In this document: positions 1-32,000 of the stretch, piece after piece
How positions within the stretch are numbered: position 1 is the first letter of the stretch
Layout of the letters: each line of letters starts with the position of its first letter
Assembly (NCBI RefSeq): GCF_000829235.1
Contig: NZ_AP012549.1
Span: 150,001 to 182,000, forward strand
Reading direction: 5' to 3'
Length of the DNA stretch: 32,000 bases
Source: a cyanobacterium endosymbiont of Epithemia turgida isolate EtSB Lake Yunoko
GTDB lineage: Bacteria > Cyanobacteriota > Cyanobacteriia > Cyanobacteriales > Microcystaceae
Made by a program: the position numbers and the translations under genes
Notes under the pieces: generated by a model
Databases searched by the model: none
Seen by the model: only the letters and a program-made list of their open reading frames with translations
What the model was told of the DNA's origin: nothing

Positions 1-20
1 GTAATTTGACAAAAATTAAG

Positions 21-74
21 TGTAACAAAAAACTATATTAAATAAAAACCTATTTAATATAGTTTTTTGTTACA
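21..74. repeat. perfect inverted repeat (24-bp arms, 6-nt loop)
   Basis: Arm 21-44 tgtaacaaaaaactatattaaata is the exact reverse complement of arm 51-74 tatttaatatagttttttgttaca. The loop is aaaacc. Confidence 0.9.
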
Positions 75-696
75 TAAATAAAAATTTAAAGTTTTACTTT
101 GATATGGTTCCAAAATTTTATAACTCTAATTTCTATAAATATCTAGTTTCTAAAATTGAATAATACAGTCAAAGTATAAATCTTGTAATTTATTAGCTAC
201 TAATTTATTAGACTAACTCTGAAAGAACCACCAAAATACTTATGAGAAATATCGAGTTGGAAGAAGACACTTACAATCTTTTAGTGTCGCAATCAAAGCA
301 CATTTAGGATTAAGTAAGCTAAAAAAGTTAGAATAAATCTAATTGACACTCAGAAACAAGCTGAAAGATCAAAAAACAAATTTTCTCGCTTTAGTTAAAG
401 GAAATAAGTATCTTTAGGTTTAGCTGGGTAATAAGAAAATCGAAATAAAGAGAAAAGAGTTTCTGGACAAAAAAAACAATATATTTACAACCGATGAGTA
501 ATAAGTAATTTTAATTGTAGAGAAAGCAGGACGGAAATAATAGATAAATAACAAATTTTCTATTTAGAGAAAGATTACTAAAATAATAATGTTCTATTCT
601 TAGGTAGGGAAACTTTCACCATACGCTGATTATTTTTTCTGAAATTGGTTATCTCATAGTTAGGATGTTCCTTTTGTTGATACTTTTATACTGTCT

Positions 697-1161
697 ATGT
701 TGACTATTATTGGTTGTGGTAATCTAAATCGATCTGATGATGCTGTAGGGGTTGTCATTGCTCAAAACCTTCAGGAATTTCTTTTAAAACATCCTGCTTC
801 TAATGTTCGTATCTATGATTGTGGAACAGCTGGAATAGAAGTTATGTTCCAAGCTCAAGGTAGTCAAAAATTAATTATTATTGATGCATGTTCGACTAAT
901 TCTTCTCCAGGAACTATTTTTGAAGTCCCTGGAGAAGAGTTAGAGAACTTACCAACACCAAGTTATAACTTACATAATTTTCGGTGGGATAATGCCTTAG
1001 CAGCCGGACGTAAAATTTTTAAAAACGATTTTCCTCAAGAGGTAATCGTCTACTTAATTGAAGCAAAAAATTTAAACCTAGGATTGGAATTAACTCCTCC
1101 AATACGAAAAGCTGCCACAGTGGTTTTGGAGAAGTTAAAAAAACAAATTATAAATTGGTGA
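697..1161 (+). CDS. NiFe-hydrogenase maturation protease (HupW/HoxW/HybD-type endopeptidase)
   Basis: 154-aa ORF. The N-terminus MLTIIGCGNLNRSDDAVGV fits the conserved GxGNxxxxDD(G/A)xG opening of hydrogenase C-terminal processing proteases, and the size is typical of the family. Whether it is HupW or HoxW cannot be decided by eye. Confidence 0.85.
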   Translation: MLTIIGCGNLNRSDDAVGVVIAQNLQEFLLKHPASNVRIYDCGTAGIEVMFQAQGSQKLIIIDACSTNSSPGTIFEVPGEELENLPTPSYNLHNFRWDNALAAGRKIFKNDFPQEVIVYLIEAKNLNLGLELTPPIRKAATVVLEKLKKQIINW

Positions 1162-1165
1162 CAAC

Positions 1166-1714
1166 TTAAGTAAAATATTTCTCGAGTAAATTATCCACTT
1201 GTCTGACACTAACCTGATTATATTGAATTTCATCAGGTAGAATTACTATGTTCGGTCCTTTTTTGCATTGTTTAAGACATTCTGTCAACCTAATTTCTAC
1301 CTGATTCATTAAACTGCGGTCAACTAATTTTGCCTGTATTTGTTGATATAATGATTTTCCTCCTCGCTCCCAACACCTAGTTTGTTTACAGACTAAAATC
1401 TTCTTTTTACTAGCTTGTTCCGGCATAATCATCACACAGGCTTTTTGAGGTCGAGTTAAAGTTTTAATAGTTTCCGCTTTAAGTTTAAAAATTCCCATAC
1501 TACCCTTTGTTTCCCTAGTTCCTTGAATTTCTAGCCAATCCTTAGGAGAAAGTTTAATATCTAAATAAACTCCTAATTCTTTGGGAATTTCTACCCAAAA
1601 TTCTCTTGAAGTTACTTTAATACGCAAATATTTAGTTATTAGTGCGTTTTTCATGACAAAACTTTCTAATTGACCGATAAGGAGGAAAGGAGAAATAGTT
1701 AAAAACTTTGACAT
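1166..1714 (-). CDS. (2Fe-2S) ferredoxin domain-containing protein (thioredoxin-like 2Fe-2S fold, NuoE/HoxE-like C-terminal domain)
   Basis: 182-aa ORF. The C-terminal half carries the Cys pattern CKQTRC ... CLKQC followed by KKGPN, typical of thioredoxin-like [2Fe-2S] ferredoxins. The N-terminal ~90 aa is a separate domain of unknown function. The gene is convergent with the hydrogenase protease, with 4 nt between the ORF ends. Confidence 0.7.
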   Translation of the reverse strand: MSKFLTISPFLLIGQLESFVMKNALITKYLRIKVTSREFWVEIPKELGVYLDIKLSPKDWLEIQGTRETKGSMGIFKLKAETIKTLTRPQKACVMIMPEQASKKKILVCKQTRCWERGGKSLYQQIQAKLVDRSLMNQVEIRLTECLKQCKKGPNIVILPDEIQYNQVSVRQVDNLLEKYFT

Positions 1715-2239
1715 CTTTTTTTATTTATTAATGAAATAATTGATAATTAAACTTATTAGTAATAACAACAATAATTTAACTAGTAGATTAATTCTTTACT
1801 AGAGCTTAATCATCCCTTAACCACACTCAAAAGTTGGATGACGACAATAGGACTAGTTGGACTTATAATAGTTGATTAATACAGCAATGTCAGGGAATTT
1901 ATAAATCTTGAAGATAAATAATGTACACTTCAACGATCACTATAAACCAGTTTTTATGACTTAAGGTTAATTCTAAAGAAAAATCAACTTAGTTTATTGA
2001 CATCAACGAATAAATATAATTTCTATTATTGCTTTACATAAAAACCTAAATAAATAATTATTATTTTGAAGTATCTCAATAAAAAAAATTATTGCCGAAG
2101 ACAATTCGGAACTAAATTAAATCTGGGTTCATCCGTTTTGGCTTAAGCCTAATTTTTTTAATATATTTTTAGGTATTGATAAATTGTTGCTAAAATAAGG
2201 TATTTTAGATATAGAAAGTTTAATATAAAGAAGGCAACC

Positions 2240-2797
2240 ATGAAGATGACAACTACTCAGGGCTTGGTACGTGCTTTTGGAGACGTGGGGGAAAACTCTG
2301 TTTTGCTAGACAAGAGTGTTACCATTCCTATTTGTGAAGGATTAAACGTGTTGATAGCTAGTTTTCAAGGACTATACCTTCAATATGAAAAACATCATTT
2401 TGTTGTAGAGGGTTCAGAATTCTACTCTTTACATGAATTTTTTAATGAAAGTTACGATAATGTTCGTGATCATGTTCATGCCCTCGCTGAACGGTTAAAT
2501 GGACTTGGAGGAATTCCCGCTGCTAGTTTTAACAAATTAGCTGAATTGTGTTGCTTTAACCCTGAAGCAGATGGATCTTACGGCTGTCGGGAGATGGTAG
2601 AACATGATTTAGAGGCAGAACAGGAAGTTCTTAAGCTACTCCGTAAACAAGCCGCTCAGGCTGAAAGCTTAGGAGATAGAGCAACTCGTTATCTTTATGA
2701 GCAAATTCTACTTAAAACAGAAGAACGAGCTTATCATTTAGATCACTTCTTAGTTAGCGACAGCTTAACTCTAGCCTTTGTTAATGACGGTAACTAA
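2240..2797 (+). CDS. dps: Dps family DNA starvation/stationary-phase protection protein (ferritin-like)
   Basis: 185-aa ORF with the Dps ferroxidase-centre context [35 protein letters not shown]. Length and helix pattern are typical of Dps. Confidence 0.9.
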
Positions 2798-2846
2798 AAC
2801 TTCCTTAAGAGTTTCCAAAGAGAGAACAAACAGTACCTGATTGAAC

Positions 2847-2871
2847 AAACTCCCATTCTTAATGGGAGTTT
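2847..2871 (+). terminator. candidate intrinsic terminator of dps
   Basis: An 11-bp perfect stem (aaactcccatt / aatgggagttt) with a 3-nt loop ctt lies 50 nt after the dps stop. It is followed by a moderately T-rich tail, tcacatttc. Confidence 0.55.
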
Positions 2872-2936
2872 TCACATTTCTAGTTTAATTCACACTCAAT
2901 CTTTTCTAATGTTAATCGACGATTAATCAATACTAA

Positions 2937-3823
2937 TCAAGTTTGGCGCAGTTTATTAAATTTACAAGAACGATCACCTACTCCCTGTAAAACTAACCGA
3001 ATGGGTTTAGATAAAACATGTACAAACCCTTTGATCCAATCAATTTTTTGAGTTTTAACTATTTTTTAAAGTTGATTAACTAAGCTCTTTAGCTCAAACT
3101 CTTGCTCTAAAATTACTCGAACAGAATTAATATTATCATCATGATTATGGTCTTCTTCCTCATTGTGATGACTAAGACGATTTTTAAAATCATCCTCGAC
3201 AGCAACATTAAAATCTAATAAAACATTAGGATTAATTTCTTTGTTATTATAAGAAACCATTTTGATTTCTGCTCTTAATTCTTATCTCAACCACTCTTTG
3301 ACTTGATGAAGTTGAAACGGTTCAATTAAGTCAGTTTTAGCCAACAATACTAAATTTACACAGACTAACTGATTTTTAAATAACTCCTCAATTGGATTTT
3401 CATATTCTAGTTTGGGATTATCCTGTCGTTGCGCTTCTAAGACAGCCAAATCCCTTACTAGAATACCTAAAACTAAAGCTTGAGGATCTACTACTGCTAC
3501 CACTCTGTCCACAGTGGTCCTATTAGGTAGGAATTTATATTCTCTGAAAGGCTTAAACTAAAGGGTTTGGCAATACCAATCCAGAAGTCTCAACTAGTAC
3601 AAAATTAATTCAAAAATATTAGTATTTGAGTCTTTATCTTCATCACAAATCTGACAATACCGCAAAAATTTTCTATCTATTCCTACTTCCTGAAATTTGT
3701 TAAATAAAACAGCAATTTATTTTTGTTGATTATATTATAGTAGATGACGAACCAATGTTACCTTAACCACTCCGAGAAAGTCAGTAATAACCGTAAAATT
3801 TTATGTATAGTAAAGTTTAGCAT
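2937..3823 (-). pseudogene. CobW/COG0523-family metallochaperone GTPase pseudogene (multiple stops and frameshifts)
   Basis: Minus-strand reading across frames reconstructs the family in the correct order. It begins MLNFTIHKI at 3823. Next is TVITDFLGVVKVTLVRHLL*, a decayed P-loop (compare GFLGSGKTTL). Next is IAVLFNKFQEVGIDRKFL (compare IAVIVNEFGEVGID). Next is VDRVVAVVDP...LVLLAKTDL (compare VVDA...LLNKTDL). An in-frame TAA follows at 3279-3281, then the His/Asp-rich linker HHNEEEDHNHDD, then a frameshift near 3060. The last block is IDWIKGFVHVLSKPIRLVLQGVGDR (CobW_C-type KG...QGVG), ending at the stop at 2937-2939. Track ORFs 3066..3260 and 3282..3512 are fragments of this pseudogene. Confidence 0.75.
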
Positions 3824-3953
3824 GTTGTCAAATGATGTTTTATCAAAAATTTTTCTTGAAACCCCTTTAAAAATATTAGAGAAACTAATTGATTGTAAGT
3901 GTTATTTTTTATAATATTATTTTAACTTAAAAGTAGTGTATATATGTTTTAAT

Positions 3954-4916
3954 TCAATTAAGATTGAACACAAAAGATCCTAAAATTAATACGCCAAATC
4001 CTAAACGATACCAAACAAAAATCCAAGTATCACGGTTTTGTAAATAGCTGGTTAACCAAGCGATAGCTAAATAGGAAAAAATTGTTGAAGAGATAACTCC
4101 TATAATAACAGGAAATAAAATTTCTTTGGAAAAGCCTAGTACCAAAACTTCTTTAGATTCTGCTAATCCTGCTATAGTAATAGCTGGAATTCCTAATAAA
4201 AAAGAAAACTTAGCTGCGGTTGCCCGTTCCAAATTCATAAATAATCCAGCTGTCATAGTAGAACCTGAACGAGACACTCCCGGAATTAAAGCCAAAGTTT
4301 GGGCTAGTCCCATTAAGACCCCGTCTTGTAATGTTAGTTGTTTAAAATCTCGTTTATGAGTTCCTAATTTTTCTGACAAAGCTAACAATACAGCCATTAC
4401 AATTGAAGAGATTGCAATAGCTCCTATACTGCGTAATGGAGAATTATCTAAATCAGAAACTAACCATTTCCATAACAACCCAAAGAAAGCAATCGGTAAA
4501 GTTCCCAACACAATGCCTGCCGCTAGTCGAAAATCATAAGATTTATAGTCCGAGATGCAGATAGCTTTTAGCGTCCCTTTAATAATATCTGTTAAATCTA
4601 ACCAGAAATACCATATTACTGCGGCAATACTTCCTAGTTGGATCACTGCTGTAAAAGATACTCCAGGATCACCCCATCCTAAAGCCAAGGGGACAACTTT
4701 TAAATGAGCCGTACTGCTAATGGGCAAAAATTCTGTCAATCCTTGTACCATTCCTAACACAATAGACTGAAACCAGTTAAATTGATAAATGGGAGTATCA
4801 GAAACTTTTAAGGAATTAGAATGAACAGTTGCTGTAAAATTCCAAAATAGGCTCAATACACCGCTAAAAACAAAAAAAGCAACTAATTCTAGTGGTCTGT
4901 GTTTTGGTTGAGTCAT
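3954..4916 (-). CDS. uppP: undecaprenyl-diphosphate phosphatase (UppP/BacA)
   Basis: 320-aa polytopic membrane ORF with the signature motifs GLTEFLPISSTAHL and PGVSRSGSTM. Confidence 0.9.
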   Translation of the reverse strand: MTQPKHRPLELVAFFVFSGVLSLFWNFTATVHSNSLKVSDTPIYQFNWFQSIVLGMVQGLTEFLPISSTAHLKVVPLALGWGDPGVSFTAVIQLGSIAAVIWYFWLDLTDIIKGTLKAICISDYKSYDFRLAAGIVLGTLPIAFFGLLWKWLVSDLDNSPLRSIGAIAISSIVMAVLLALSEKLGTHKRDFKQLTLQDGVLMGLAQTLALIPGVSRSGSTMTAGLFMNLERATAAKFSFLLGIPAITIAGLAESKEVLVLGFSKEILFPVIIGVISSTIFSYLAIAWLTSYLQNRDTWIFVWYRLGFGVLILGSFVFNLN

Positions 4917-6168
4917 AAGAATTGAGAGACTTATATAAACTTAAAGGATAAAAGTTTCAGCAATTTTATCAGTAAATACTTGCTGTTTAAAACTTTTCTA
5001 CAAAAATTGAACCCCCTAGCAATTCATCTTATAACATTCAATAAATTTAAACCTAATTATCTATTTAAAACCTAGATTTTTTAAAAAATTGTTAAAGTTA
5101 TCTAATTTTATATATGAGAAATTACTAGCTTATTTATTTTTTTTAAAATACATCGAAATCAAGAATAATTACTAATGTCTTGGTATTCTATCTAGATAGT
5201 AGCGAAACTCAACCCCAACTTATTGATCTTGAAAATCAATTTTTAGAAAATAAAATTTTAAGCTTTAAATTTTATTTTAGTCTTCTTTATAAATTCCCTA
5301 TAAACTTAAAGCTGTCTCTCTACCTTTTAACCTCTTTCCTTTCCCCTTTTTCTGAAAATTTATCTTTAAGTAAATTATCTCTAATAGAACTCTATAAATA
5401 AACTTAAAAGCCTTGGATAAGACTTAATATCTTTCAGCAGATCTAGAAAATAAACTCAGATTAGATATCGTTAAAATTCCTGAGAGAGATTTTCTAATGT
5501 AATCATCCCTAACTAGTCTCAGGAGTTGAATCTGTGAAAAACCTTAACATTTAGTTGCAATCTAAGAATTTCTTTTTATCTAAAATTTATCATCATTTAA
5601 GCTAAATACTCTATTATTACTAGATTTCCTGGAATTTAACAGAATATTTACACTTATCCAGAGAATTTTAAAGGAGTGATCACCTAAAAAAGTCAATTTT
5701 CTAGTTTAATACAATATAATCTTACGATTCTTTCTTTGAATATAGCCAACGATTTTAGCGATTTACAAATAAGTCTCGATGAGAATGTGCTTATCGTATT
5801 TATACGACAACTATCTTTAATTTTAGATCCACTTTAACAGATAATTTAGTAACATATATGGTTAAACACACTTTATCTAAACGAGATGTTGAGAGAATAT
5901 CATAAAATAATTTATCTAGTTATTTTAAAAGGACTTAATTCCTTTTTTTAACATTTATATTTATTACTCTCGTTTATTTTACCCTCAAGCAACTTAATTT
6001 TATAAAAAGCTACTTTTTATTTGGGTTAATAAAGTATGTTAAATCATTAATTTTATTATTAAATACATAACAGGAAAAACATCAATTATAAACAATCTTT
6101 TAAATAAAATTAGTGCTTATTATTGATTAATAATTTTTATGTTTTTTATTCTTAAAATATTTTATAGC

Positions 6169-6214
6169 TATATAGGTTTTTGATCTCATTATAAATAGGT
6201 CAAAAACCTATATA
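6169..6214. repeat. perfect inverted repeat (15-bp arms, 16-nt loop)
   Basis: Arm 6169-6183 tatataggtttttga is the exact reverse complement of arm 6200-6214 tcaaaaacctatata. Confidence 0.85.
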
Positions 6215-6518
6215 AATTTAATAATCATTGTATTAATTTATTCAAAATAAACAATAATTTTATGCTGCTTAAATTAAGTATTTTTTATTTTATTATTCCT
6301 AATATCTATTGGAATAATAACCAAAAAGTAACTTTTATTCTAACCCTATTAGTAATTTTTGACAATCTAGGCTCTCTTACTTGTTTATCTAATATAATAG
6401 AACTCTAATATTAGATTTAATTATTTATTTTTAACATTAAAATATAAAAAATTATTAAAATTTAAATATTAGCGTTAATTTAAGTTGTTTATATTAGCAA
6501 TGTTGATATATTGTTTGT

Positions 6519-6558
6519 TAGACAAAATTACTATAATTATAGAATTATATTTTGTCTA
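6519..6558. repeat. quasi-palindrome (10-bp outer arms around a 12-nt central palindrome)
   Basis: The outer arms are tagacaaaat (6519-6528) and attttgtcta (6549-6558). The centre, ctataattatag (6531-6542), is self-complementary. The segments between them are unequal, so the whole is imperfect. Confidence 0.6.
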
Positions 6559-7025
6559 TGATCATCTAATTGCTAAGTAGATGATTTTAAACTAAAAGAA
6601 TTTAACATTAAATAAAAAGACCATTTTAAACTAAAAAATAAGTTAAATGTAATGAATTACTTGAAGTAAAATGGTTAATTTTTATATCTCTAAACTTATA
6701 AGTAAAAATTAATAAATTGTTTTAATAGTTTTACCATATAAATATATATTTTATGCATATTTATATAGTAAATATTTTATTATATTATCCGATAAAAATA
6801 AATAATTTAAATTAACCTAAACTCAAAAATATTTAATAAAGTATTACTAATTTACTCAGATTTTGAAGTGTTTTTTGGACATTCATTCCATTATGGTTGA
6901 TAACCTCTTCAATTTAATATATAGATTTAAAAAAGTAAATTAATTTTTTAATTTAAAATTTAAACTTAGCTATTCTGTATTGTTAATGACAAAATATTTT
7001 TTTATAAAATGTATTAAATATTAAC

Positions 7026-7077
7026 TTGATTGAATAAATAACTATAATATATATATTATAGTTATTTATTCAATCAA
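7026..7077. repeat. 52-nt perfect palindrome (no loop)
   Basis: The left half ttgattgaataaataactataatata (7026-7051) is the exact reverse complement of the right half tatattatagttatttattcaatcaa (7052-7077). Confidence 0.95.
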
Positions 7078-7213
7078 ATCTTAAAACTGATTTATATAAT
7101 TTATTTATCTTAAAAGCTTTTAAAACTTATCGCTCATTATTTTGTTTAATTTTTACTGCAAAAATTATAATATTTTAATTAATAAAATAGTTAATAATTT
7201 CATTTAAAATATA

Positions 7214-7260
7214 TATAGAAACTCTGATAATTAATCAGATTAATTATCAGAGTTTCTATA
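7214..7260. repeat. perfect inverted repeat (22-bp arms, 3-nt loop), ~90 nt upstream of dxs
   Basis: Arm 7214-7235 tatagaaactctgataattaat is the exact reverse complement of arm 7239-7260 attaattatcagagtttctata. The loop is cag. Confidence 0.95.
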
Positions 7261-7351
7261 ATTAGTCATGAGGAAATAATAAACTAAAGTCAGAAAATCA
7301 ATTAAAGTTGTAATATAGCGCATTAATCAAAATGGTAGAGAAACATACAGC

Positions 7352-11376: not shown

Positions 11377-11427
11377 TTTACCGAGAAGGGTTTGAATTTT
11401 TTTAAAATTCAAACCCTTCTCGGTAAA
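11377..11427 (-). terminator. candidate intrinsic terminator of grxC (24-bp perfect stem, 3-nt loop)
   Basis: Arm tttaccgagaagggtttgaatttt (11377-11400) pairs with arm aaaattcaaacccttctcggtaaa (11404-11427). The stem has a GC-containing core and begins 12 nt downstream of the grxC stop on the minus strand. There is no clear U-tract beyond the stem. Confidence 0.55.
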
Positions 11428-11438
11428 CATGTGGTTTG

Positions 11439-11705: not shown

Positions 11706-11883
11706 TTTGATCCTGAATCTAAGTTTTAAGTCTTAAATTTATATTGTACTAAAATTAACCGCAAAATTAGTCAATCATTACCTGAAAACTAAGTAATAAG
11801 AACATTTTAAATTAAGAATTGAAGGTCCAGATAGGTTATTCTGAATATTTAGACTAGTACCTGCTGTAACGTTGGTCAAGCTT

Positions 11884-19411: not shown

Positions 19412-19422
19412 AATTTACTATA

Positions 19423-21079: not shown

Positions 21080-21111
21080 ATATATACTAATCAATAATTG
21101 ATATTTAATAT

Positions 21112-21558: not shown

Positions 21559-21590
21559 GTTTTAAAAATATTTTCATTTTATTGATATTT

Positions 21591-21618
21591 AAGACTAATT
21601 TTTTAAAAAATTAGTCTT
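21591..21618 (+). terminator. candidate terminator of the 19232-21558 cluster (28-nt perfect palindrome)
   Basis: aagactaatttttt | aaaaaattagtctt begins 33 nt after the stop at 21558. The stem is AT-rich and no separate U-tract is present. Confidence 0.4.
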
Positions 21619-21775
21619 GGCTGAGTGAGAAAATTAAAAACCTATATAATTATCATTATTTCATTTCAATAAGTTTTATGACTCTTCCAAATGTTTAAAC
21701 GATTGATTTCAAGAAAGCCAAGTTATACAGAAAATAATGGAAAGATTTTAAAAATTACCTAAAAAAGACAAGCGC

Positions 21776-23494: not shown

Positions 23495-24783
23495 CGCCAA
23501 TCATAGAAAGTCTACAAACAAATAAAATTCAACCCTTACTTACTTAAATTTGACTATGAATTGTTTAGTCCTATTATACCGATATAAGCTCTGAATATAA
23601 CTCAAAAATAAAAATATTTTGATAAATTTAATTTACAGTTTTACTTGATGAGGACTTCATAGAAATAAGAACTACTTTTAACTGTTAATTTCGTTTTTGT
23701 TCCAACTCCGAAATTAATTTGAAATGAATTATATTAATATCAATATAAACAAGTTCTTATAAATTGTGCTATTGAGGAATCAAACTAACTTTACAACTGG
23801 CTTAGATTAGGAAATAACCCATTCTTCACAGTCTACTCAATAAATAATTTTAGGATAAATTTCTGCCGCTTCATAGATTTTGTAATCAGCCCAGCAAAAC
23901 TTACAGTGAATAACTTTTAAATAAAATTAATTGATTAATTTATCAACGTTAATGACTTATTTCTGGGTAAAGATAAAATTACTAGTAACCCCTAAAGAAA
24001 AACTTTGCTTAAATAACTTAAGAGAAGTTCAAGAATGACCTTATGAATCTAAAATTGTAGATAATATGCTGCTGTACTTACTAAGAAATTAACGATTAGT
24101 TTTAGCTTTAGGATTAAGAATTCTTCTCTTAACATTAACAATATTTATTAAATAGATTAGGCCTTTTCTCCTTAATGCAGCTCCAATGCTCAAAGTATCT
24201 ACCCAAGCTGACTATGACGCATAAATTTTAGGTGTACCAGTAAATTTTCTTTATTGGTTGGTTTTTAGGATAGAAATAAAATGGTAAAGTTTTCTTTATG
24301 TACTAATTTTAGTACAATAATCGTAACAAATCTCTTAACCCCAAATACTATGTTGTTACATATATTTTACTTTGGAAATGTATTGAATTAATGGATTAAT
24401 TTTGTCACCGAATCTTTAGGTGTTAAGGTATAAATTTTAAAGAAAAAGTAGCTAAACAAGACTTACCTCCTCTATGAAAACTGACAAGAATAATTGCTTT
24501 AAGTGTAAAACTAATATCAGCTATAGCTTTTACCTGTACTAGGATTTACTTCAATTGTCTTTATTTTAGATGGCTATTCTCTGGGACTAGCTGAAGGAGT
24601 AATTTCACGTAATACAGCTTTGATTTATATTTTTTTGGGTTTATTCCTTGAACTATTATTACTTGACAGTTAAATAATAATGACTTATTACAATTAACTC
24701 TATCTTACTTTATGATACTCAGAGCTATTTTACTCAGTTCATAAATTACTCAAAGTATTAAAAAGGCAAAATTTTTATTTATA

Positions 24784-27132
24784 ATGAATATCTTGCAAGA
24801 TAAATGGCAAATAGCACCATCTCCATTAATTCCTCAGTGGTTTCTAACAATTGTTAAATTATATACTCCTAATTCTGAAGGAAAACATGTTGCTAAAATT
24901 CTATGGCAACGAGGAATTCAACACAAAGATCAACTGATGTCTTTCATTGATGCTGATGCCTATCATCCAACTAGTCCTTTTGCTTTTGGAGAAGAAATGA
25001 AATGGGCAGTTAAACGCCTTAAAAGAGCTTATGAAAATCGAGAAAAAGTAACTATATGGGGGGACTTTGATGCTGATGGAATTACCTCAACTAGCGTTCT
25101 TTGGGAAGGATTAGGACAATTTTTTCTTCCTCATCTTCAACTTGACTATTATATCCCTAATCGTATCACAGAATCACACGGATTAAATTGTCAAGGAATA
25201 AAAAAATTAGCAATATCAGGAACTCGGTTAGTTGTGACTTGTGATACAGGCAGTACTAACTTAACTGAAATTGACTATGCTAATGAGTTAGGTATTGATA
25301 TAATTGTCACCGATCATCATGTTTTACCAGATACTCGGCCCCCTGTTACTGCTATTATCAACCCTCGCTACTTTAGCACTAATCATTCTCTATTTAATCT
25401 ATCAGGAGTGGCAGTAGCCTATAAATTAATTGAAGCATTTTATCAGGAATTACCTAATATTCCTCAAGAACCACTAGAACAATTATTAGACTTAGTTGCT
25501 ATCGGGCTAATTGCTGACTTAGTTGAGTTAAAAGGAGATTGTCGTTATTTAGCACAAAAAGGTATTCGATGCTTGCACAAACAGCAACAATTTAAAACTC
25601 GTCCAGGAATTGCTAAATTATTAGAGTTATGTAAGAAAAATGGTGATCGACCTACTGATATTTCCTATGGTATTGGACCTAGAATTAATGCTATTAGTCG
25701 CATTTATGGAGATGCAACATTTGGAGTTGAATTATTAACTAGTCGCGATATAAAACTTTGCCACGAACTTGCTTTTAAAACCGAATTAGCAAACACAAGA
25801 CGTAAAGAAATACAACAAAGAGTTTATAAAGATGTTAAAAATAAACTATCTAAAATTGACTTGTCAACTGTGAAAGCTATTGTCTTAAAAGATACTCAAT
25901 GGGATAGCGGAGTTCTAGGGTTAGTTGCAGGAAAAATTGCTCAAGAATATAGTCGTCCAACAATTTTATTAACCATAATAGAAACAGATAATGAAGACGA
26001 AGTTAAAGGCATAAAAATGCTCAGAGGTTCAGCGCGCTCAGTTAATCAAATAGATTTATATAAATTACTGGATTATCATAAAAATTTGTTACATCGTTTT
26101 GGAGGACATCCTTTTGCTGTAGGGTTAAGTTTACCTCTAAAAAATTTAACTTTATTTAGAGAAGGGATTAATCAACAATTACGACAAAAACTCGATCATA
26201 TTACTTATTTAAAAGCAACGATTGAAGTAGATTTAATTGTTACTGTTGTTGACTTAGGACAAGATTTATTTCGAGAACTAAAATTATTAGAACCCTGTGG
26301 AATTGGTAATTCTATTCCTAAAATTTTAATACAAAATTGCTGGTTTGATAATGTTTTCAGCAATAATATTGAGGACAGAACAAAAAATAAAATACAGTAT
26401 ATAAAGACAACTTTTGAGATTCATGATTTTTCTACTGACAAAGGATTTCCTGGAGTTTGGTGGGAACATTATAAAGATGAGCTTCCTTTTGATAAACTCC
26501 AAGATACTATTGTTGAATTATATTTTAATTCTTATTATAAACGTTATGAAGTTAGATTAATTGCTATTAGAGACTGTGTAGATAATGTTGAACTTAATCA
26601 AAATACTAATAATAATAACTATTTGTTAGATTGGCGAAACAAAAAATATAAAGAAGACTTTCAAAAAGTAAATACTCAAATTCAAATATTACAAGAATGT
26701 CCTAATAGCTGGGATGAACTATTAACAATATATCATCAAACTCAACAAAAAAAAATTAAACTTGCTCTTGCTTATGATTCACCAAAATATATAAATTCCA
26801 TAGAAGTTTGGCAACAATTATTAGGAATTGCAAAATATTACAGTCGTACTAATGAAGTTGTCAATATAAAACAAATAAAGACAAGATTAGAACTTAGTAA
26901 TTATACCCTAAAAATTGGATTAGAAACCTTGTATGAATTAGGATTTAATTACAATAAAATAGAAGAAAAGTTCCAATTTAGATGGATCAAAAAGATTGCT
27001 AATAATGCTCAAAAACAAGTGAGTAAATTTCTAGAAATAGTGGACGAAGAACAATTTCAGCATAAATATTTTTCTGAAGTTTCGCTTGAGTATATCAACA
27101 AAAAAATATATATAAACAATAAAAAAGAATAA
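24784..27132 (+). CDS. recJ: single-stranded-DNA-specific exonuclease RecJ
   Basis: 782-aa ORF with DHH-family motifs DFDADGITS, TCDTGS and VTDHH, and the DHHA1 motif RFGGHPFAVG. It has a long Asn/Lys-rich C-terminal extension. Confidence 0.9.
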   Translation: MNILQDKWQIAPSPLIPQWFLTIVKLYTPNSEGKHVAKILWQRGIQHKDQLMSFIDADAYHPTSPFAFGEEMKWAVKRLKRAYENREKVTIWGDFDADGITSTSVLWEGLGQFFLPHLQLDYYIPNRITESHGLNCQGIKKLAISGTRLVVTCDTGSTNLTEIDYANELGIDIIVTDHHVLPDTRPPVTAIINPRYFSTNHSLFNLSGVAVAYKLIEAFYQELPNIPQEPLEQLLDLVAIGLIADLVELKGDCRYLAQKGIRCLHKQQQFKTRPGIAKLLELCKKNGDRPTDISYGIGPRINAISRIYGDATFGVELLTSRDIKLCHELAFKTELANTRRKEIQQRVYKDVKNKLSKIDLSTVKAIVLKDTQWDSGVLGLVAGKIAQEYSRPTILLTIIETDNEDEVKGIKMLRGSARSVNQIDLYKLLDYHKNLLHRFGGHPFAVGLSLPLKNLTLFREGINQQLRQKLDHITYLKATIEVDLIVTVVDLGQDLFRELKLLEPCGIGNSIPKILIQNCWFDNVFSNNIEDRTKNKIQYIKTTFEIHDFSTDKGFPGVWWEHYKDELPFDKLQDTIVELYFNSYYKRYEVRLIAIRDCVDNVELNQNTNNNNYLLDWRNKKYKEDFQKVNTQIQILQECPNSWDELLTIYHQTQQKKIKLALAYDSPKYINSIEVWQQLLGIAKYYSRTNEVVNIKQIKTRLELSNYTLKIGLETLYELGFNYNKIEEKFQFRWIKKIANNAQKQVSKFLEIVDEEQFQHKYFSEVSLEYINKKIYINNKKE

Positions 27133-27193
27133 ATATAATTTATTCTTTAAGCTAGAATAGATAAGGTGCTATTGCAAAAGTACGTATAAAATT

Positions 27194-27460
27194 ATGAAAT
27201 CTTTAACCTATCTAATTATCACAATAATGATTGCTTTCTGGTTTGGAGTAATCGCTATTTTTTCTATTCAAAACATTACTGAAATTTCTTTAAAATTTTT
27301 AATGTTGGAATCTATCAAATTTCCCATTGGAGTATTATTATCTTTCTGTATAGGGGGGGGAATGGTTTTGGGATCACTAATGACTATATTGTGGGAATGT
27401 TCAAAATATTTACCTCAAAGAGATTCAAGGAAAATTTCTAAAGAAGTTGATAATTTTTGA
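27194..27460 (+). CDS. LapA-domain (DUF1049-like) small membrane protein
   Basis: 88-aa ORF with two TM helices (ITIMIAFWFGVIAIFSI and VLLSFCIGGGMVLGSLMTIL), 61 nt downstream of recJ on the same strand. The family call is from memory. Confidence 0.55.
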   Translation: MKSLTYLIITIMIAFWFGVIAIFSIQNITEISLKFLMLESIKFPIGVLLSFCIGGGMVLGSLMTILWECSKYLPQRDSRKISKEVDNF

Positions 27461-27737
27461 TTTAAATTGAATCAATGTATATGTTAGGTTAATGTTAAAT
27501 TACAAGTCGTAAAATTACGTCGAACAATTGATGCGTAAATTCTAATAGCCATAGAAAAATTAGTTATTTAGTTGCTGATGATTTAATTAAAATATAAACA
27601 ATAAAAATAAGAAAAAAATTAATTTAAAATTGTAAAAATTATATAAAAATTTTTACAAATAAAGTCAATAAAAGAGTAAATAAGAAGACTTTAATAAAAG
27701 CAAAATAAATAAAGTGATAGAAAATTTTAGAACAGAA

Positions 27738-27795
27738 AAACCTCTGTTTTAAGTTAATTTTTTTAATCATAAAAATTAACTTAAAATAGAGGTTT
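27738..27795. repeat. near-perfect inverted repeat (25-bp arms with one G:T position, 8-nt loop)
   Basis: Arm aaacctctgttttaagttaattttt (27738-27762) pairs with arm aaaaattaacttaaaatagaggttt (27771-27795). The only non-Watson-Crick position would be G:U in RNA. Confidence 0.85.
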
Positions 27796-28308
27796 AAAAA
27801 TATTGCTTAAAAACTTAATTAAAAAATAAATAAAAAAGTTAAGATAATATTTTCAATGAAAACTATTAGTTGGTGACTAGAGTCTTGTTAACTAATTTAG
27901 TTGAACTAGCTCCAGTAGGTTTAATTTATTGAGATTTATAAATAATAAATTTGCTAAGTGTTAGTGTTTATATAATCCCTTATAAAGAATAGTAGATTAA
28001 AATAATAATGGTAATTTTAATAAAATAAAAGTTAAAATAATTGCAAATAAAAGCAGTAAATTTACTTCGATTAAAAACCAAATTAAATTAGACTTATACT
28101 ATTAATTAATTAATAGTTTATTCACTTAGTAGAATTGATGAAATTGATAATATAGAATTTATTAGAGATAAAATATTTGTACTAGTTAAATAATAGCGAC
28201 ATTTCGATTTTGAAAATTAAAGTAAGTAGGAATTTTTAAAAAATAACTATGACAAGCATAATTTATATTAGAGTTAACAAATTTTTTTTGCTTTCTGATT
28301 TTCTTCTT

Positions 28309-28851
28309 TTAACTCGATTGAAATACATACAATGTTATAGCACTATTTCCATAATATTTTTTCTGACGAATTTCTAATCCATTGATTGTCATTGCTTGCC
28401 ATAATTTAGGATTATGTTCTACTGCAATTTCTCCGCCTTTTTTTAAAAGTTTGTGAGCTGCTATTTTTTCTAAAACAGGTTGATACAACATACTAGTATA
28501 AGGCGGATCAAAATAGATATAATGAAATTGTTGTCCTTCTAGAGTTTTTAGGATGTTTAAAACATCACCTTTAATCACTTTAAAAGTCTGATTTGTCGTG
28601 GAAAATTTTTGCCAATTTTGCTTAATAATTTTACACGCTTTCCCATAGCTTTCAATACCTATTACTTCCCTTGCACCACGAGATAAAGCTTCTGCACCCA
28701 TTGAACCATTTCCTGCACATAAATCTAGCCAACGACATTCGACAATTGAACCTTGCCAAATATTAAACAAAGCCTCCCTAACTTTAGCAGATGTAGGACG
28801 AATTAATTGTCCAGGTAAAGTGGTTAATAATCGATTTCCATAAATCCGCAT
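28309..28851 (-). CDS. rsmD: 16S rRNA (guanine(966)-N(2))-methyltransferase RsmD
   Basis: 180-aa ORF with the SAM-binding motif LDLCAGNGSMGAEALSRGA, the DPPY motif (YFDPPYTS), and the typical RsmD N-terminus RIYGNRLL...LRPTSAKVREALFN. Confidence 0.85.
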   Translation of the reverse strand: MRIYGNRLLTTLPGQLIRPTSAKVREALFNIWQGSIVECRWLDLCAGNGSMGAEALSRGAREVIGIESYGKACKIIKQNWQKFSTTNQTFKVIKGDVLNILKTLEGQQFHYIYFDPPYTSMLYQPVLEKIAAHKLLKKGGEIAVEHNPKLWQAMTINGLEIRQKKYYGNSAITLYVFQSS

Positions 28852-29168
28852 TCTGGTTAATAGTTAATTATAGGGATATTGATTAGGAACTACTGACAAA
28901 TACAAAAGTCTAGCCAAACTCAAACACGTAATAGTGATCAGTCAATGCAACACGACTAATAAACTCTTGAGTATCTAAACTATCCATTGTTTTTTCTAAT
29001 TGTACTTGTCTTAGTTACCAACTACTAAAATAGTAATCTATCCTAAATACAATTTTATCCAAAAAAACTATTGATAGGTTTTTAGATATCTCTAAGTGAA
29101 TAAGTAACTGCAATTGAAGTCTAACTTAACTAATCTTAATTATCTAAGCAGACAATTAAAAATTCTAG

Positions 29169-29807
29169 TTATTTATAGAGTTGTACTGATTTAAGTAAAC
29201 TCACAAAATTAGATAGGCTTTTTAAGCCATAATTGGAGGATTTTTCAGGGTGAAATTGTACTGCCATTAAATTATCAAAAGCAATTGCTGCTGTTACTGT
29301 TTGACTGCCATGAGTAACGGTTGCTGCGGTAACACTTATATCAAGTGGATCAACATAATAAGAGTGAACAAAATACATGTAAGGATTAGGGGGTAAGCCT
29401 TGCCATAAACTTAAATTAGATTGAGTAAATTCCAATTGATTCCAACCCATGTGAGGAATAGTAAGATAAGGTTCAGAACGAAAACGACGGACCTTTCCAG
29501 GAATAATTCCTAACCCTGGTTCTTTCCCTTCTTCAGAAGTATCAAAAAGAATTTGTAAACCTAAACAAATTCCTAAAAAAGGTTTTTTATCAGCAATTGC
29601 CTGTTTAATAGGATTAACTAAATGGCGCGCCCGTAAATTTTGAACTGCCGGATCAAAAGATCCTACTCCAGGTAAAATAATTCCAGCAGCTTTAGCAATT
29701 TCGTTAGGAGAATCAGTGATTTTTGGGGTTATCCCTGCTCTTTCGATTCCCTTACAAACAGAATGTAGATTTCCCATATCATAGTCGATAACTGCAATAA
29801 AATTCAT
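29169..29807 (-). CDS. hisH: imidazole glycerol phosphate synthase, glutamine amidotransferase subunit HisH
   Basis: 212-aa ORF opening IAVIDYDMGNLHSV, with the nucleophile context GICLGLQ and the C-terminal FHPEKS of class I GATase HisH. Confidence 0.92.
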   Translation of the reverse strand: MNFIAVIDYDMGNLHSVCKGIERAGITPKITDSPNEIAKAAGIILPGVGSFDPAVQNLRARHLVNPIKQAIADKKPFLGICLGLQILFDTSEEGKEPGLGIIPGKVRRFRSEPYLTIPHMGWNQLEFTQSNLSLWQGLPPNPYMYFVHSYYVDPLDISVTAATVTHGSQTVTAAIAFDNLMAVQFHPEKSSNYGLKSLSNFVSLLKSVQLYK

Positions 29808-29952
29808 GTTGTAAGATTTAATATAATAAATGCTTTGATCCTATTCTAGAGTATAAGAAACCATGACTAGCATTGTTTTAACTTTACTTGATTTCAAATT
29901 TAGATACCCTATCAACTCTCTAGTTCCTTGAAGGTTATTTGAAGATATATTT

Positions 29953-30008
29953 AAAATAAAGCTATCGAAGGAGTATTTATTTAAACACTCCTTCGATAGC
30001 TTTATTTT
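29953..30008. repeat. perfect inverted repeat (22-bp arms, 12-nt loop)
   Basis: Arm aaaataaagctatcgaaggagt (29953-29974) is the exact reverse complement of arm actccttcgatagctttatttt (29987-30008). It lies upstream of hisH, not downstream, and inside the spurious track ORF 29841..30086. Confidence 0.9.
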
Positions 30009-30735
30009 TGTCATAATGACTAGATTGTATCGATTATTAATTATAAACTTGAATATTAGGAGAGAATGGGATAAACTTAAAAGCACAATTAACCTAAAAA
30101 AATAGTTTTATAATTGCTTAATATATCTATTGGTTACGATGAATGAAAATTAATTTATTTATAAAAAATTTTATTATAAAGTAATATAATATTTGCGACA
30201 ATTTAATTGTATCTATATCTTGATCCTGATTCTATATTTTTATTTATTTTTAAAAAATTTATCTAGTTGAATTTATAATAACTTATTTAGAGATACATAA
30301 AGTAAAAAAAATATCTATGATTAGATTAAAATATAATCATTTACTTATAGAAAAAATAATGTTAATTAATTGTGATAAAAAAGAGAATTAGTTTAGAAAA
30401 TAATTATTAAATGGCTTTAAATAAGTGATTAACAAGTCATCAATTTTTTACCAACTACTTGAATAATCTAAGCAAAGACTGGAACAATTATGACAAGAAG
30501 GCCTCAGCTAGATAAAAGTCTAACTATTCGACAATTAACATAGATTTTTACAAAATTTAATTATAGGTAAAGTTCTTATTATTATCCATAATGGAACAAT
30601 TAATATGCTTGTCTTTATAAGAATTAGTATTAAACTATTTCTAATAATACTGCTATTTTATGAATTTTAAAATAAAAAGTAATTTAATCATTGAATAACC
30701 AAGAGTAGATTTACAATATTAGAAGTGTTATGTTA

Positions 30736-30782
30736 AGGTTTTATATATAATATAATTATAATGTCTATTATATATAAAACCT
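30736..30782. repeat. perfect inverted repeat (17-bp arms, 13-nt loop)
   Basis: Arm aggttttatatataata (30736-30752) is the exact reverse complement of arm tattatatataaaacct (30766-30782). Confidence 0.85.
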
Positions 30783-31858
30783 AATTATTTTAAAGAATTT
30801 TATTTTAATTTTTTAAAAAAAATATTAATTTTTATAACTTAAAAACTTGAACTATGCCCTTATATAAAAATACTTTAAATATAATTTATAACCTATTACA
30901 AAGATAATAAAAAAAACAGATGATCTCTATCGTAAAAATATACAGTATTATATTTCATTTTTTATCATTGCTGTCACTCCATCGGCTATTCCTCTTTTTT
31001 TTGTAAATAAGAAATTTTTAATAGCTTGACAAGTTTTTCAGACAAGAGTAATTGTTAGTAGCCATTACAGGTTATTTTTTAAACAAATAGTACGTGATAC
31101 GAAAATCAATCAAGTCTATACTAGGATTTTATAGTACAATATCAGCATCTTGGGTAAGGGCTGATACGTTAACATTAGGATAAAATACTTCTGTTTATCT
31201 TTGAAGTTTAATGGAAGGAAAAAAATTGATCAGTAAATTTATATATTATACAGGAGATATTTTAAAAAGCATAGGAACAATTTGTTGAGAAAGTTAGTAA
31301 CAGAAAGAAAATATATAATTGGAGTTTTTATCTATTGGTATAAAAATTTTCCTTTCTGAGAAAACTTAAACTTTAAGATAAATTATTATTTACCAAAAAC
31401 CTATTACAGCAATCAAATAAAAACATGTTATTATTTAATTGATAAGACTAAAAAGTGCAGACTAAAGTAGTTTAATTAATACTATTTTTAATACAAAACT
31501 AGCTGAGGTTAGTGTTTTGTCTAGTACTAAAAAAATTAACTTTTTGAAATACTGCTGGTTATGAATAAGTCAATCGCCCTTAATTTCATAAACAACTTCC
31601 AAATTCTTGTATGAAAGCTTACTTATTATTAATTACTCCTATTCTTAGCCTGCCTTTATAAATAAACGTTATTTTTTTTATGCTGTCAAATCTGAGGGAA
31701 TAGACTTACCATCATGAGTTTACTTTCGATTCAGAGACTGTTTTGAACGAAACTTTAAGTAAGTGACATATAAGAAAATAAAATTTTTTAGGTAATTTTT
31801 TTTTCTTTAAGCCATTTAGATGATTCTTTTGGAATGTTAGTTCAGCGAAATACATCAT

Positions 31859-31880
31859 ATAGTTATCTTAAGATAACTAT
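31859..31880. repeat. 22-nt perfect palindrome
   Basis: atagttatctt | aagataactat. Confidence 0.8.
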
Positions 31881-32000
31881 TATAAATAGTCTCCTATGAG
31901 TTCTTTTAGATGAAGAACAAATTGACCAATTTTCTGCTCTTATTATTCTTTTAAAATTTAGATAAAAATTGATTACACCTAAAAATCTAGAATGATTTAC

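Follow-up and report, generated by a model that had tools for sequence, protein, structure and literature searches.

Long perfect hairpins in spheroid-body spacers: probable products of quasi-palindrome template switching, with a terminator-like minority at gene ends

Why should spacers that are otherwise decaying contain hairpins that are perfect? The window, i.e., the whole stretch of DNA analysed here, covers ~32 kb of the chromosome of the Epithemia turgida spheroid body (SB, or diazoplast), a diatom's cyanobacterial endosymbiont with a genome of 2.79 Mb, about half of it decaying, AT-rich spacer. A preliminary description placed fourteen inverted repeats within it, and all fourteen are found where it put them, twelve of these with a perfect stem of at least 14 bp. 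Two explanations were offered there, selection for RNA-level functions such as termination, or instead the perfecting of imperfect palindromes by template switching. As judged from sequence, most of these hairpins probably are products of quasi-palindrome template switching in near-neutral, AT-rich spacer, with a minority, found at gene ends, likely under selection in addition. The elements, along with two further imperfect hairpins, are as follows.

21-74, no strand assigned: hairpin, perfect 24-bp arms, 6-nt loop, ~620 nt upstream of hycI
2847-2871, plus strand: hairpin, 11-bp stem, 3-nt loop, then a T-run, 50 nt past the dps/ferritin stop
6169-6214, no strand assigned: hairpin, 15-bp arms, 16-nt loop, middle of the 2.4-kb divergent uppP-dxs spacer
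7026-7077, no strand assigned: perfect 52-bp palindrome, 26-bp arms, spacer 0
7214-7260, no strand assigned: hairpin, 23-bp arms, 1-nt loop, 92 nt upstream of the dxs start codon
11377-11427, minus strand: hairpin, 24-bp arms, 3-nt loop, 12 nt past the glutaredoxin stop (minus strand)
12988-13022, plus strand: imperfect hairpin within the S8-protease coding sequence
17730-17781, no strand assigned: perfect 52-bp palindrome, 26-bp arms, spacer 0, between convergent DUF3177 and arsR
18560-18620, no strand assigned: hairpin, 23-bp arms, 15-nt loop, divergent arsR-DUF3326 spacer
18635-18672, no strand assigned: perfect 38-bp palindrome, 19-bp arms, spacer 0
18667-18700, no strand assigned: hairpin, 15-bp arms with 1 mismatch, 4-nt loop, overlapping the end of 18635-18672
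21591-21618, plus strand: perfect AT-rich 28-bp palindrome, 14-bp arms, loop 0, 33 nt past the DUF3531 stop and also upstream of an ABC-transporter gene
27738-27795, no strand assigned: hairpin, 25-bp arms with 1 mismatch (16 bp perfect), 8-nt loop, convergent lapA-rsmD spacer
29953-30008, no strand assigned: hairpin, 22-bp arms, 12-nt loop, 146 nt upstream of a minus-strand hisH-like amidotransferase gene
30736-30782, no strand assigned: hairpin, 17-bp arms, 13-nt loop, middle of an expanded AT-rich spacer
31859-31880, minus strand: perfect 22-bp palindrome, 11-bp arms, loop 0, ~130-150 nt downstream of a minus-strand FAD-monooxygenase gene (stop just beyond the window end, its position inferred from synteny with the related SB locus L086)

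Excess over chance and uniqueness of the arms

The earlier estimate that none of these would be expected by chance is borne out by shuffling. With dinucleotide-preserving shuffles, run in blocks of 100 or 300 bp so that local composition is retained, stems of at least 11, 14, 17 and 20 bp appear on average 1.4, 0.05-0.08, 0 and 0 times, versus 19, 12, 9 and 7 times in the window. Non-coding DNA, which makes up ~15.8 kb, contains all 12 of the stems that reach 14 bp, and 5 of the 12, having a loop of 0-1 nt, are perfect even across the apex. Pairing in the stems is fully Watson-Crick with zero G:T pairs, a single DNA hairpin is predicted for each element upon folding (z-scores of -4.5 to -12.6), and mismatches in hairpins with 20-nt arms peak at zero (7, 2, 2 and 2 hairpins with 0, 1, 2 and 3 mismatches, respectively).

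Such elements might descend from dispersed repeats or miniature mobile elements (MITEs, REP/BIME-like sequences, IS ends), or instead sequencing or assembly artefacts, though we give this very little credence. IS-related sequences are indeed present in SB genomes (PMC5638926), and the 17730 palindrome is gone as a 76-bp block in the R. gibba SB. The arms, however, lack a consensus, as had been described: no two arms share a word longer than 9 nt, equivalent to random spacer segments (mean maximum 9.5), and no terminal-repeat or target-duplication pattern was found at the hairpins. The R. gibba SB gap, furthermore, is a deletion since CTATC direct repeats flank it and since 17730 is present in three other lineages. 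Assembly artefact is unlikely because a separate assembly (Logan SRR29904087; L091) matches window positions 18643-31558, i.e., 12.9 kb, at 100% identity, hairpins included, and the same hairpins are seen in sister genomes that were sequenced independently.

Lineage-specific footprints of probable arm-to-arm copying

The main sister genome, that of the E. adnata SB (L089), is 94.6% identical to the window. Upon comparison with this and other SB genomes, one arm is seen to have been rewritten, with its partner conserved, at 7026, 18560, 18635, 27738, 29953 and 7214. At all of these except 27738, the arm that changed matches its conserved partner exactly as a reverse complement, in several instances with indels. 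Perfect palindromes at 7026 and at 18635 are found only in the E. turgida SB. At 7026 the E. adnata SB possesses a quasi-palindrome, with differences in 15 of 35 left-arm columns (including a 9-nt length change), 5 of 26 right-arm columns and 1 of 60 columns of the right flank. At 18635 the left arm differs from that of the E. adnata SB at 4 of 19 positions (including an indel) and the right at 1 of 19, and the R. gibba and R. gibberula SB orthologues are non-palindromic. The left arm of 18560 differs at 5 of 23 positions versus 0 of 23 for the right, with the outer 11 bp specific to the E. turgida SB and outgroups resembling the E. adnata state. Arms of 7214 are identical in the E. adnata SB, where the loop base alone differs (A versus T); in comparison with the R. 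gibba SB, 4/23 positions differ in the conserved right arm, versus 12/23, along with a 7-nt indel, in the rewritten left arm.

Toward the end of the window, the left arm of 29953 is the same as in the SB locus L082 (0/22 differences), and its right arm has been rewritten in the window alone, with 8/22 differences, a 1-nt insertion among them, when set against five other SB genomes. Hairpin 27738 is only quasi-palindromic in L082 and in L081, its closest relative (88.5% identical), and its left arm is, by eye only, closer to their right arm, read as the reverse complement, than it is to their left arm. Orthologues of 21591 in five other SB genomes are imperfect quasi-palindromes, the L082 orthologue of 30736 is alignable and not palindromic, and 6169 is a 15-bp stem in the E. 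adnata SB and non-palindromic in the R. gibba SB. Polarisation is noisy in these AT-rich spacers, with an automatic outgroup test at 7026 returning mixed calls, and some elements may have decayed in the sister lineage instead of having been perfected in the window.

Between window and E. adnata SB there are four compensated arm pairs, i.e., changed on both sides yet still Watson-Crick, versus 0.11 expected (Poisson P = 6e-6), though selection on structure would likewise yield such pairs, and the sample is small (n=4). Arms of hairpins that are perfect in both genomes change at approximately the background rate. Hairpin 21-74 is shared with the E. adnata SB (L089 2619-2656, there with a 15-bp perfect stem), has a compensated pair at positions 32 and 63, and has a loop which differs at three positions if compared as the reverse complement but at six if compared directly. 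The loop of 2847 likewise matches better as an inverted copy. Hairpin 18667-18700 is perfect in the E. adnata SB (L089 21393-21426), with 18672 and 18695 a compensated pair. Within the S8-protease gene (12988-13022), the E. adnata SB loop, AACATTA, is the exact reverse complement of the TAATGTT of the window and of the R. gibba and E. clementina SBs; this 7-nt loop inversion along with two arm corrections accompanies a 14-bp perfect stem, and alters the E. adnata SB protein (NV to TL, and P to R).

For the E. turgida/E. adnata clade, the ~32 kb contain at least eight inferred events, with arms reaching 26-30 bp. One-arm rewriting, compensated pairs, loop flips and centre-perfect palindromes together fit quasi-palindrome template switching or arm-to-arm conversion. 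Perfection through the apex speaks for a DNA process, as an RNA hairpin needs no such perfection. The replication mechanism that we infer is one in which a nascent strand, during replication or repair synthesis, would fold back at an imperfect inverted repeat, copy a stretch of the opposite arm, and then resume upon its proper template. A single switch could rewrite an arm as its partner's exact reverse complement, extend the stem, convert a mismatch to a compensated pair, or flip the loop. Repeated arm-to-arm correction would then preserve perfection while the surroundings drift, with switch products presumably tolerated, and accumulating, because the spacers are nearly neutral.

Identical footprints could be supplied by a DNA-level process other than replication slippage, that is, by cruciform or hairpin extrusion with inter-arm mismatch repair, by loop-flipping intramolecular recombination, or by fold-back priming in double-strand-break repair. 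Arm-to-arm gene conversion or inverted-repeat recombination would also give rise to homogenised arms, compensated pairs and loop flips, and a giant, 100% perfect inverted duplication without spacer in a related genome (L082 1-3788) would fit fold-back repair, if real. We nevertheless view such processes as decidedly unlikely here. Copying more readily accounts for the rewriting of a non-complementary arm where length changes by 1-9 nt (7026, 7214, 29953), mismatch repair is a poor fit for de novo arm rewriting as the hairpin would have been unable to form beforehand, and arms of 14-26 bp are short for homologous recombination. By sequence data these variants are inseparable.

Hairpins at gene ends

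Might all of the hairpins be functional RNA elements, i.e., intrinsic terminators or organelle-style 3'-end processing or stability signals, with pairing kept by selection and with stems long due to the extra length that stability would require when AT-rich? The preliminary description counted only three (2847, 11377, 21591) right after a gene end, which is true inside the window, and 31859 additionally follows the gene just outside. These four sit 12-150 nt past stop codons, with 17730 and 27738 between convergent genes, and free-living cyanobacteria too possess perfect 14-18 bp hairpins directly after dxs.

Some of these are also conserved. The 2847 stem is identical in the E. adnata and R. 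gibba SBs and has one change in the E. clementina SB, though with a variable loop (CTT/AAA/TCTT/A7 across the window and three relatives) and flanks diverging by 15-20%; it probably is an intrinsic terminator. Both 11377 and 17730 remain paired, with covariation, across deep lineages. The former has a 29-bp perfect stem in the E. adnata SB, with one compensated pair (G:C to A:T), is a perfect 22-bp hairpin of other sequence in the R. gibba SB, and is imperfect in the E. clementina SB; it is, to judge from this, an old, maintained element in a terminator position. The latter, also old and maintained on such evidence, has a 30-bp perfect stem in the E. adnata SB (one compensated pair and a symmetric centre change) and a 27-bp perfect stem in the R. 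gibberula SB, and has decayed in the E. clementina SB. Over a four-genome alignment both members have changed in 5 of its 28 pairs, among them swaps of G:C to C:G and of G:C to T:A that have no G:U intermediate. The 31859 palindrome is kept in L082 (one central mismatch) and partly in L086. Hairpins 2847, 11377, 17730 and 31859 are old, conserved across deep SB lineages and probably terminators, and 21591 perhaps is a further member of this group, with selection most likely retaining them as terminators or RNA 3'-end elements.

As an explanation of all of the hairpins, however, RNA function is unlikely. Approximately eight (6169, 7026, 7214, 18560, 18635, 29953, 30736 and 21-74) have no gene 3' end nearby, and most of these are missing or imperfect in relatives that are 88-95% identical. 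G:T pairs are lacking, apices are perfect, arms evolve at approximately the neutral rate with one-arm bursts that include indels, and a consensus terminator scan flags only three hairpins. Of the explanations originally offered, template switching is well supported for most elements, both for their origin and for their maintenance, and selection fits only 2847, 11377, 17730 and 31859, not the roughly eight found in divergent-promoter or mid-spacer positions.

Density and known systems

Hairpins of at least 14 bp number 0.51 per non-coding kb in SB loci, 0.76 in the window, and 0.105 in 78 loci of free-living cyanobacteria, that is, density per kb of spacer is ~5 times higher in SB genomes, an excess which could stem simply from more neutral DNA and higher AT content, without a raised switching rate. 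Stems of at least 20 bp number 19 in 206 kb (SB) versus 2 in 1288 kb (free-living). Density is uneven among SB lineages, with 0 in 7.4 kb of spacer for the marine uoEpiScrs1 and 0 in 3.4 kb for L081. The mechanism is an established one; for a nascent organelle genome, such a density of its products apparently has not been reported.

As with rho-independent terminators, 2847 and 11377, and probably 21591, 31859 and 17730, are in matching positions, with 2847 a short stem followed by a T-run. Unlike such terminators, most window elements are off gene ends, far longer, AT-rich, and often without loop and T-tract. Arm-to-arm gene conversion reportedly occurs in large human Y-chromosome palindromes (a finding credited to Rozen et al., 2003). 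There, as here, arms evolve in concert, diverging approximately neutrally between lineages while keeping their mutual identity, though over tens to hundreds of kb rather than tens of bp, and with enzymology that presumably is different.

Plastid genomes display hairpin-associated small inversions as well as 3' inverted repeats (reportedly described by Kelchner and Wendel in 1996, and by Stern and Gruissem in 1987). These too involve unique stem-loops in AT-rich, organelle-type spacers, in which loops flip among close relatives and some hairpins sit at the 3' ends of genes (PMC5492656). The window, by contrast, is from a young (nascent) nitrogen-fixing endosymbiont, its stems are unusually long, many are loopless, and any RNA-processing role would be putative.

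Template switching makes quasi-palindromes perfect or more perfect (PMC7202029). This is the Ripley model of quasi-palindrome-associated template-switch mutation, known from the E. coli thyA hotspot and from lacZ QP reporters (PMC7202029), in which, as in the window, an imperfect inverted repeat is perfected by a multi-nucleotide change in one arm, copied as its partner's reverse complement. The window events, instead of coming from reporter reversion, are deduced from divergence that arose naturally between endosymbiont genomes. Template switches can also create a perfect stem, make several compensatory changes and invert a loop (PMC8794818), and the window shares with the cases of Monttinen and Loytynoja 2022 (PMC8794818) de novo perfect stems, one-step multiple compensation, loop inversions and half-stem insertions. 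Those cases concern functional rRNA and microRNA genes, with outcomes filtered by selection, whereas the window elements are mostly in apparently neutral spacers, and the mutational process therefore is visible almost unfiltered, and at high density.

Inventory and distribution of the hairpins

About half of the window is coding, and its G+C content is approximately 31% overall, with 16–25% seen in those kilobases which are dominated by spacer. The genes are cyanobacterial, that is, encoding a hycI-type hydrogenase protease, dps/ferritin, uppP, dxs, glutaredoxin (grx), an S8 protease with DUF5942, a FIST protein, DUF3177, arsR, DUF3326, an Rce1-like protein, DUF3531, an ABC exporter, recJ, a LapA-domain protein, rsmD, and a hisH-like amidotransferase, with synteny with free-living Crocosphaera confined to dxs itself. 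Scans of the window supplied no tRNA gene and no Rfam family match, and a consensus promoter scan is uninformative in such AT-rich DNA, its promoter-like matches equaling shuffle counts. RecJ and Dxs are 100% identical to proteins of the E. turgida endosymbiont, which places the window in its spheroid-body (diazoplast) chromosome. The spacer (window 30086–32000) running from the hisH-like gene to the next gene, a FAD-dependent monooxygenase placed by synteny past the window's end, is about 2.2 kb long versus about 0.83 kb in the R. gibberula spheroid body (SB), the extra DNA being about 81% A+T.

All 14 of the inverted repeats of the preliminary description are present in this DNA, with arm and loop lengths as described there, and these are referred to here by their start positions. 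Each folds, as DNA, into a simple hairpin (z-scores of −4.5 to −12.6). The expectation that chance would not supply such arms was borne out as well, that is, as based on local, dinucleotide-preserving shuffles: perfect stems of at least 11, 14, 17, and 20 bp number 19, 12, 9, and 7, respectively, versus shuffle means of 1.4, 0.05–0.08, 0, and 0. Hairpins with 20-nt arms indeed peak at zero mismatches, with counts of 7, 2, 2, 2, and 5 for zero through four mismatches versus 0, 0, 0.03, 0.5, and 2.8 upon shuffling. Loops are only 0–1 nt in 5 of 12 long stems, i.e., perfection there extends through the apex, and arm G+C ranges from 6 to 42%.

The arms share no common sequence, as had been claimed, the longest word found in common being 9 nt, a length likewise seen among random spacer segments. 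A dispersed repeat or mobile-element family (REP/BIME, MITE, or HIP1-type) was considered and set aside given no shared consensus and no Rfam match. A candidate shared arm motif, AAACC..TATAT, is not enriched over random spacers, and the repeat-family idea was dropped for that reason too. Nor are these elements likely to be artefacts of assembly, as an independent assembly (Logan SRR29904087) is 100% identical to the window across 12.9 kb holding four hairpins, and as several elements are present also in sister genomes that were sequenced by other groups. These same observations, along with the loss of hairpin 17730 from the R. gibba SB by deletion, contradict the view that the hairpins are relics of mobile elements.

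Distribution was assessed by comparing syntenic loci of other SB genomes with 78 free-living cyanobacterial dxs loci.

Perfect stems of at least 14 bp, per 10 kb of locus
Window: 3.75
E. adnata SB: 5.0
R. gibba SB: 3.2
E. clementina SB, two loci: 3.65 and 0.9
Free-living loci: mostly 0, maximum 1.4

Per non-coding kilobase, stems of at least 14 bp are found at 0.51 in SBs (0.76 in the window) versus 0.105 in free-living cyanobacteria, and stems of at least 20 bp number 19 in 206 kb versus 2 in 1288 kb. As judged on the compared loci, dense long hairpins thus are specific to SB genomes. Density nevertheless is uneven across SB lineages. Particularly, perfect stems of at least 14 bp number zero both in 7.4 kb of spacer at the locus from uoEpiScrs1, a marine endosymbiont with a 2.48-Mb genome, and in 3.4 kb of spacer at the locus from a relative (L081) that is 88.5% identical to the window near 27738. 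As G+C content is similar in both, hairpin density may differ between SB lineages.

Hairpins can occur also in clusters. Three perfect hairpins with stems of 18, 18, and 15 bp lie within 310 bp in the E. adnata SB (L089 2347–2656), a cluster which is found to the left of and overlapping the window's start, such that the window begins inside of it. A comparable three-hairpin cluster is seen at window 18560–18700.

Gene-end hairpins and younger spacer hairpins

The most informative relative is the E. adnata SB, which is 94.6% identical to the window over positions 6–19184 (799 substitutions, 43 gaps). Further outgroups were R. gibba, E. clementina, R. gibberula, and another Rhopalodia SB (chromosome CP191495), plus two metagenome contigs. 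Automatic polarization using the R. gibba and E. clementina SBs was too noisy in spacers, and manual multi-genome alignments were used instead. The alignments divide most of the hairpins between an older, gene-end class and a younger, lineage-specific one.

Hairpins of the window by class, with differences from relatives given as differing positions per arm
Older, gene-end class
2847: 50 nt past the dps stop codon; stem unchanged in E. adnata and R. gibba SBs, one change in E. clementina SB; loop variable
11377: 12 nt past the grx stop codon
17730: between convergent genes; found in four lineages, in one of them decayed, and deleted in a fifth
31859: roughly 130–150 nt past a gene just beyond the window's end (by synteny); conserved in CP191495
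Younger, lineage-specific class
21-74: probable member
6169: member
7026: perfect 52-bp palindrome in the window, only quasi-palindromic in E. adnata SB; versus the latter, left arm 15/35 columns (with a 9-nt length change), right arm 5/26, right flank 1/60
7214: versus R. gibba SB, left arm 12/23 (with a 7-nt indel), right arm 4/23
18560: versus E. adnata SB, left arm 5/23, right arm 0/23
18635: versus E. adnata SB, left arm 4/19 (one indel), right arm 1/19
27738: member
29953: versus CP191495, left arm 0/22, right arm 8/22 (including an inserted base)
30736: member

The gene-end hairpins 2847, 11377, 17730, and 31859 behave as conserved elements in terminator position, and such a role is predicted for them here from sequence. 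Distances to the hairpin from a stop codon on the gene's own strand are short for 2847, 11377, and also 21591 (33 nt), and roughly so for 31859. Selection for RNA structure, which the preliminary description had offered as one of two explanations for the hairpins generally, could account for this class. By contrast, no stop codon lies within about 100 nt upstream, on the gene's strand, of 21-74, 6169, 7026, 7214, 18560, 18635, 29953, or 30736. Hairpins overall also lack intrinsic-terminator form, i.e., a short G+C-rich stem, a loop of 3–8 nt, and a T-tract. A consensus terminator scan, which is uninformative in AT-rich DNA, calls only 7214 (minus strand), 29953 (minus strand), and 18635, with no call for 2847, even though the latter fits the terminator form by eye.

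Two loci may be mentioned alongside. The R. gibba SB (L001 20575–20580) is without a 76-bp block corresponding to window 17730–17805, including the 17730 palindrome, and CTATC direct repeats bound that gap, which is a signature of slippage deletion. For the small gene ending just before 17730, called as a DUF7734-like ORF in the E. clementina SB, there is no convincing ORF in the window. Five free-living loci (L004, L009, L029, L054, L057; ~11917–11990) carry a perfect 14–18 bp hairpin, which presumably is a terminator, directly following the stop codon of dxs, and the window has no perfect hairpin of at least 10 bp at that position.

The younger hairpins mostly occupy divergent-promoter or mid-spacer DNA and are missing or imperfect in relatives that are 88–95% identical. 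Six (7026, 18560, 18635, 27738, 29953, and 30736) are perfect in the window only, with orthologues at that same range of identity quasi- or non-palindromic. Polarization is clear for 29953, the right arm of which is unlike that of five other genomes which agree among themselves, and for 18560; it is weaker for 7026. In every case of one-arm change, i.e., 7026, 7214, 18560, 18635, and 29953, the altered arm reads exactly as the reverse complement of its conserved partner. Change thus is clustered, multi-nucleotide, often accompanied by an indel, and concentrated in one arm, and the derived state is more perfect than that of relatives or outgroups, all of which would be expected of template switching.

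Compensated pairs and inverted loops

Between the window and the E. adnata SB there are four arm pairs (32/63, 11389/11415, 17739/17772, and 18672/18695) which have changed on both sides while remaining Watson-Crick, versus 0.11 expected (P = 6e-6). Correspondingly, the site of 11377 is occupied in the R. gibba SB by a perfect 22-bp hairpin whose sequence is clearly distinct. The arms of 17730 are perfect over 27 bp in the R. gibberula SB, and in a four-genome alignment both members have changed in 5 of 28 pairs of this hairpin, with G:C to C:G and G:C to T:A among them, swaps which do not pass through a wobble (G:U) intermediate. One-step compensated pairs, that is, including ones impossible via G:U, are a further expectation of template switching, as too are loop inversions.

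The latter is best seen within the S8-protease gene, at a hairpin found at window 12988–13022 (L089 15662–15696). The loop is AACATTA in the E. adnata SB and TAATGTT, the exact 7-nt reverse complement, in the window as well as in the R. gibba and E. clementina SBs. At this site the E. adnata SB also carries two base changes that make a 14-bp stem perfect, and loop inversion and stem changes together alter three amino acids (NV to TL and P to R). The marine uoEpiScrs1 endosymbiont has the AACA-type orientation, which suggests that this loop may have flipped repeatedly. Elsewhere, the 1-nt loop of 7214 shows an A/T difference between the window and the E. adnata SB, and the loops of 21-74 and 2847 match better as inverted copies. 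Loop orientation thus flips between close relatives with stems kept, as is seen in plastids.

A second coding-sequence repeat, in hycI (window 896–943), is perfect over 11 bp in the window and over 16 bp in the E. adnata SB, with paired T:A versus C:G differences setting the window apart from the SBs of R. gibba and E. clementina; the peptide sequence is for the most part retained.

Template switching as the proposed origin

These footprints match quasi-palindrome template switching, the other explanation that had been put forward. Neutral AT-rich spacers may both seed quasi-palindromes and tolerate the products, a nascent strand would take the opposite arm as template and then return, making the repeat more perfect, and repeated arm-to-arm correction would keep hairpins perfect. 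Template switching via the opposite arm leaves a repeat ‘perfect or more perfect’ (PMC7202029), and outcomes catalogued for RNA hairpins comprise perfect stems arising anew, multiple compensatory changes, inverted loops, and insertions within one half of the stem (PMC8794818); what is seen in the window matches that catalogue too. SB genes for DNA replication and repair are, dnaA aside, reported to be largely intact (preprint 10.64898/2026.03.19.712447).

The sister-genome alignments consequently divide the earlier proposal. Gene-end hairpins are conserved, and selection for RNA structure is retained for that class. Selection fails, however, with regard to the positions of the other hairpins, their youth, one-arm bursts of change, symmetry that is perfect through the center, and near-neutral arm rates. 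Arm-to-arm conversion, whether through mismatch repair or through recombination, is mechanistically close to template switching and is compatible with the sequence data as well.

Of 1055 columns differing between the window and the E. adnata SB, 38 (3.6%) are in perfect inverted-repeat context, versus control counts of 13 (reversed copies), 0 (complemented copies), and 1 (direct copies). About eight discrete template-switch-type events can be counted. These numbers suggest that, between two sister genomes, such events account for some 1% of the mutational events and for about 3.6% of the differing columns.

Template switching has been studied mostly in reporter hotspots, or instead inferred in genes, the signal of which is blurred by selection, and the older plastid literature includes similar spacer hairpins and small inversions. 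The mechanism is already known. What the 32 kb covered here would seem to offer is a particularly clear natural case of the birth and maintenance of template-switch hairpins in a nascent organelle genome. That is, with a half-neutral, AT-rich endosymbiont genome and sister genomes at 80–95% identity, hairpin birth, correction, flipping, and decay are directly readable. A like combination of spacer hairpins and small inversions is found in plastid genomes (PMC5492656), and a literature search found no SB paper mentioning palindromes, hairpins, or inverted repeats. Plastid-like hairpins can appear in the spacers of endosymbionts or organelles without selection, and covariation, taken alone, does not demonstrate functional RNA structure in such genomes. 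In diazoplasts, this mutational background of hairpins must be allowed for when terminators and small RNAs are annotated.

More speculatively, and improbable on present indications, an unusually active SB template-switch regime might keep creating perfect spacer hairpins, some of which are recruited by the host–endosymbiont system as organelle-style RNA 3′-end, insulator, or stability elements. If so, then a mutational process would be supplying raw material as bacterial gene expression becomes organelle-like, in convergence with plastids, and lineage hairpin densities (none in the sampled uoEpiScrs1 locus) would follow whether a particular nuclease or repair gene had been lost or kept.

A much larger repeat is seen in the Rhopalodia SB chromosome CP191495 (L082 1–3788). 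There, the 3′ part of the ABC-transporter gene lies within an inverted repeat that is 100% perfect and lacks a spacer, with each arm 1894 bp long or longer. This 3.8-kb repeat is either genuine, as a giant palindrome or inverted duplication, or else a fold-back artefact of long-read assembly. The DUF3326-to-ABC segment of this same chromosome is inverted relative to the window.
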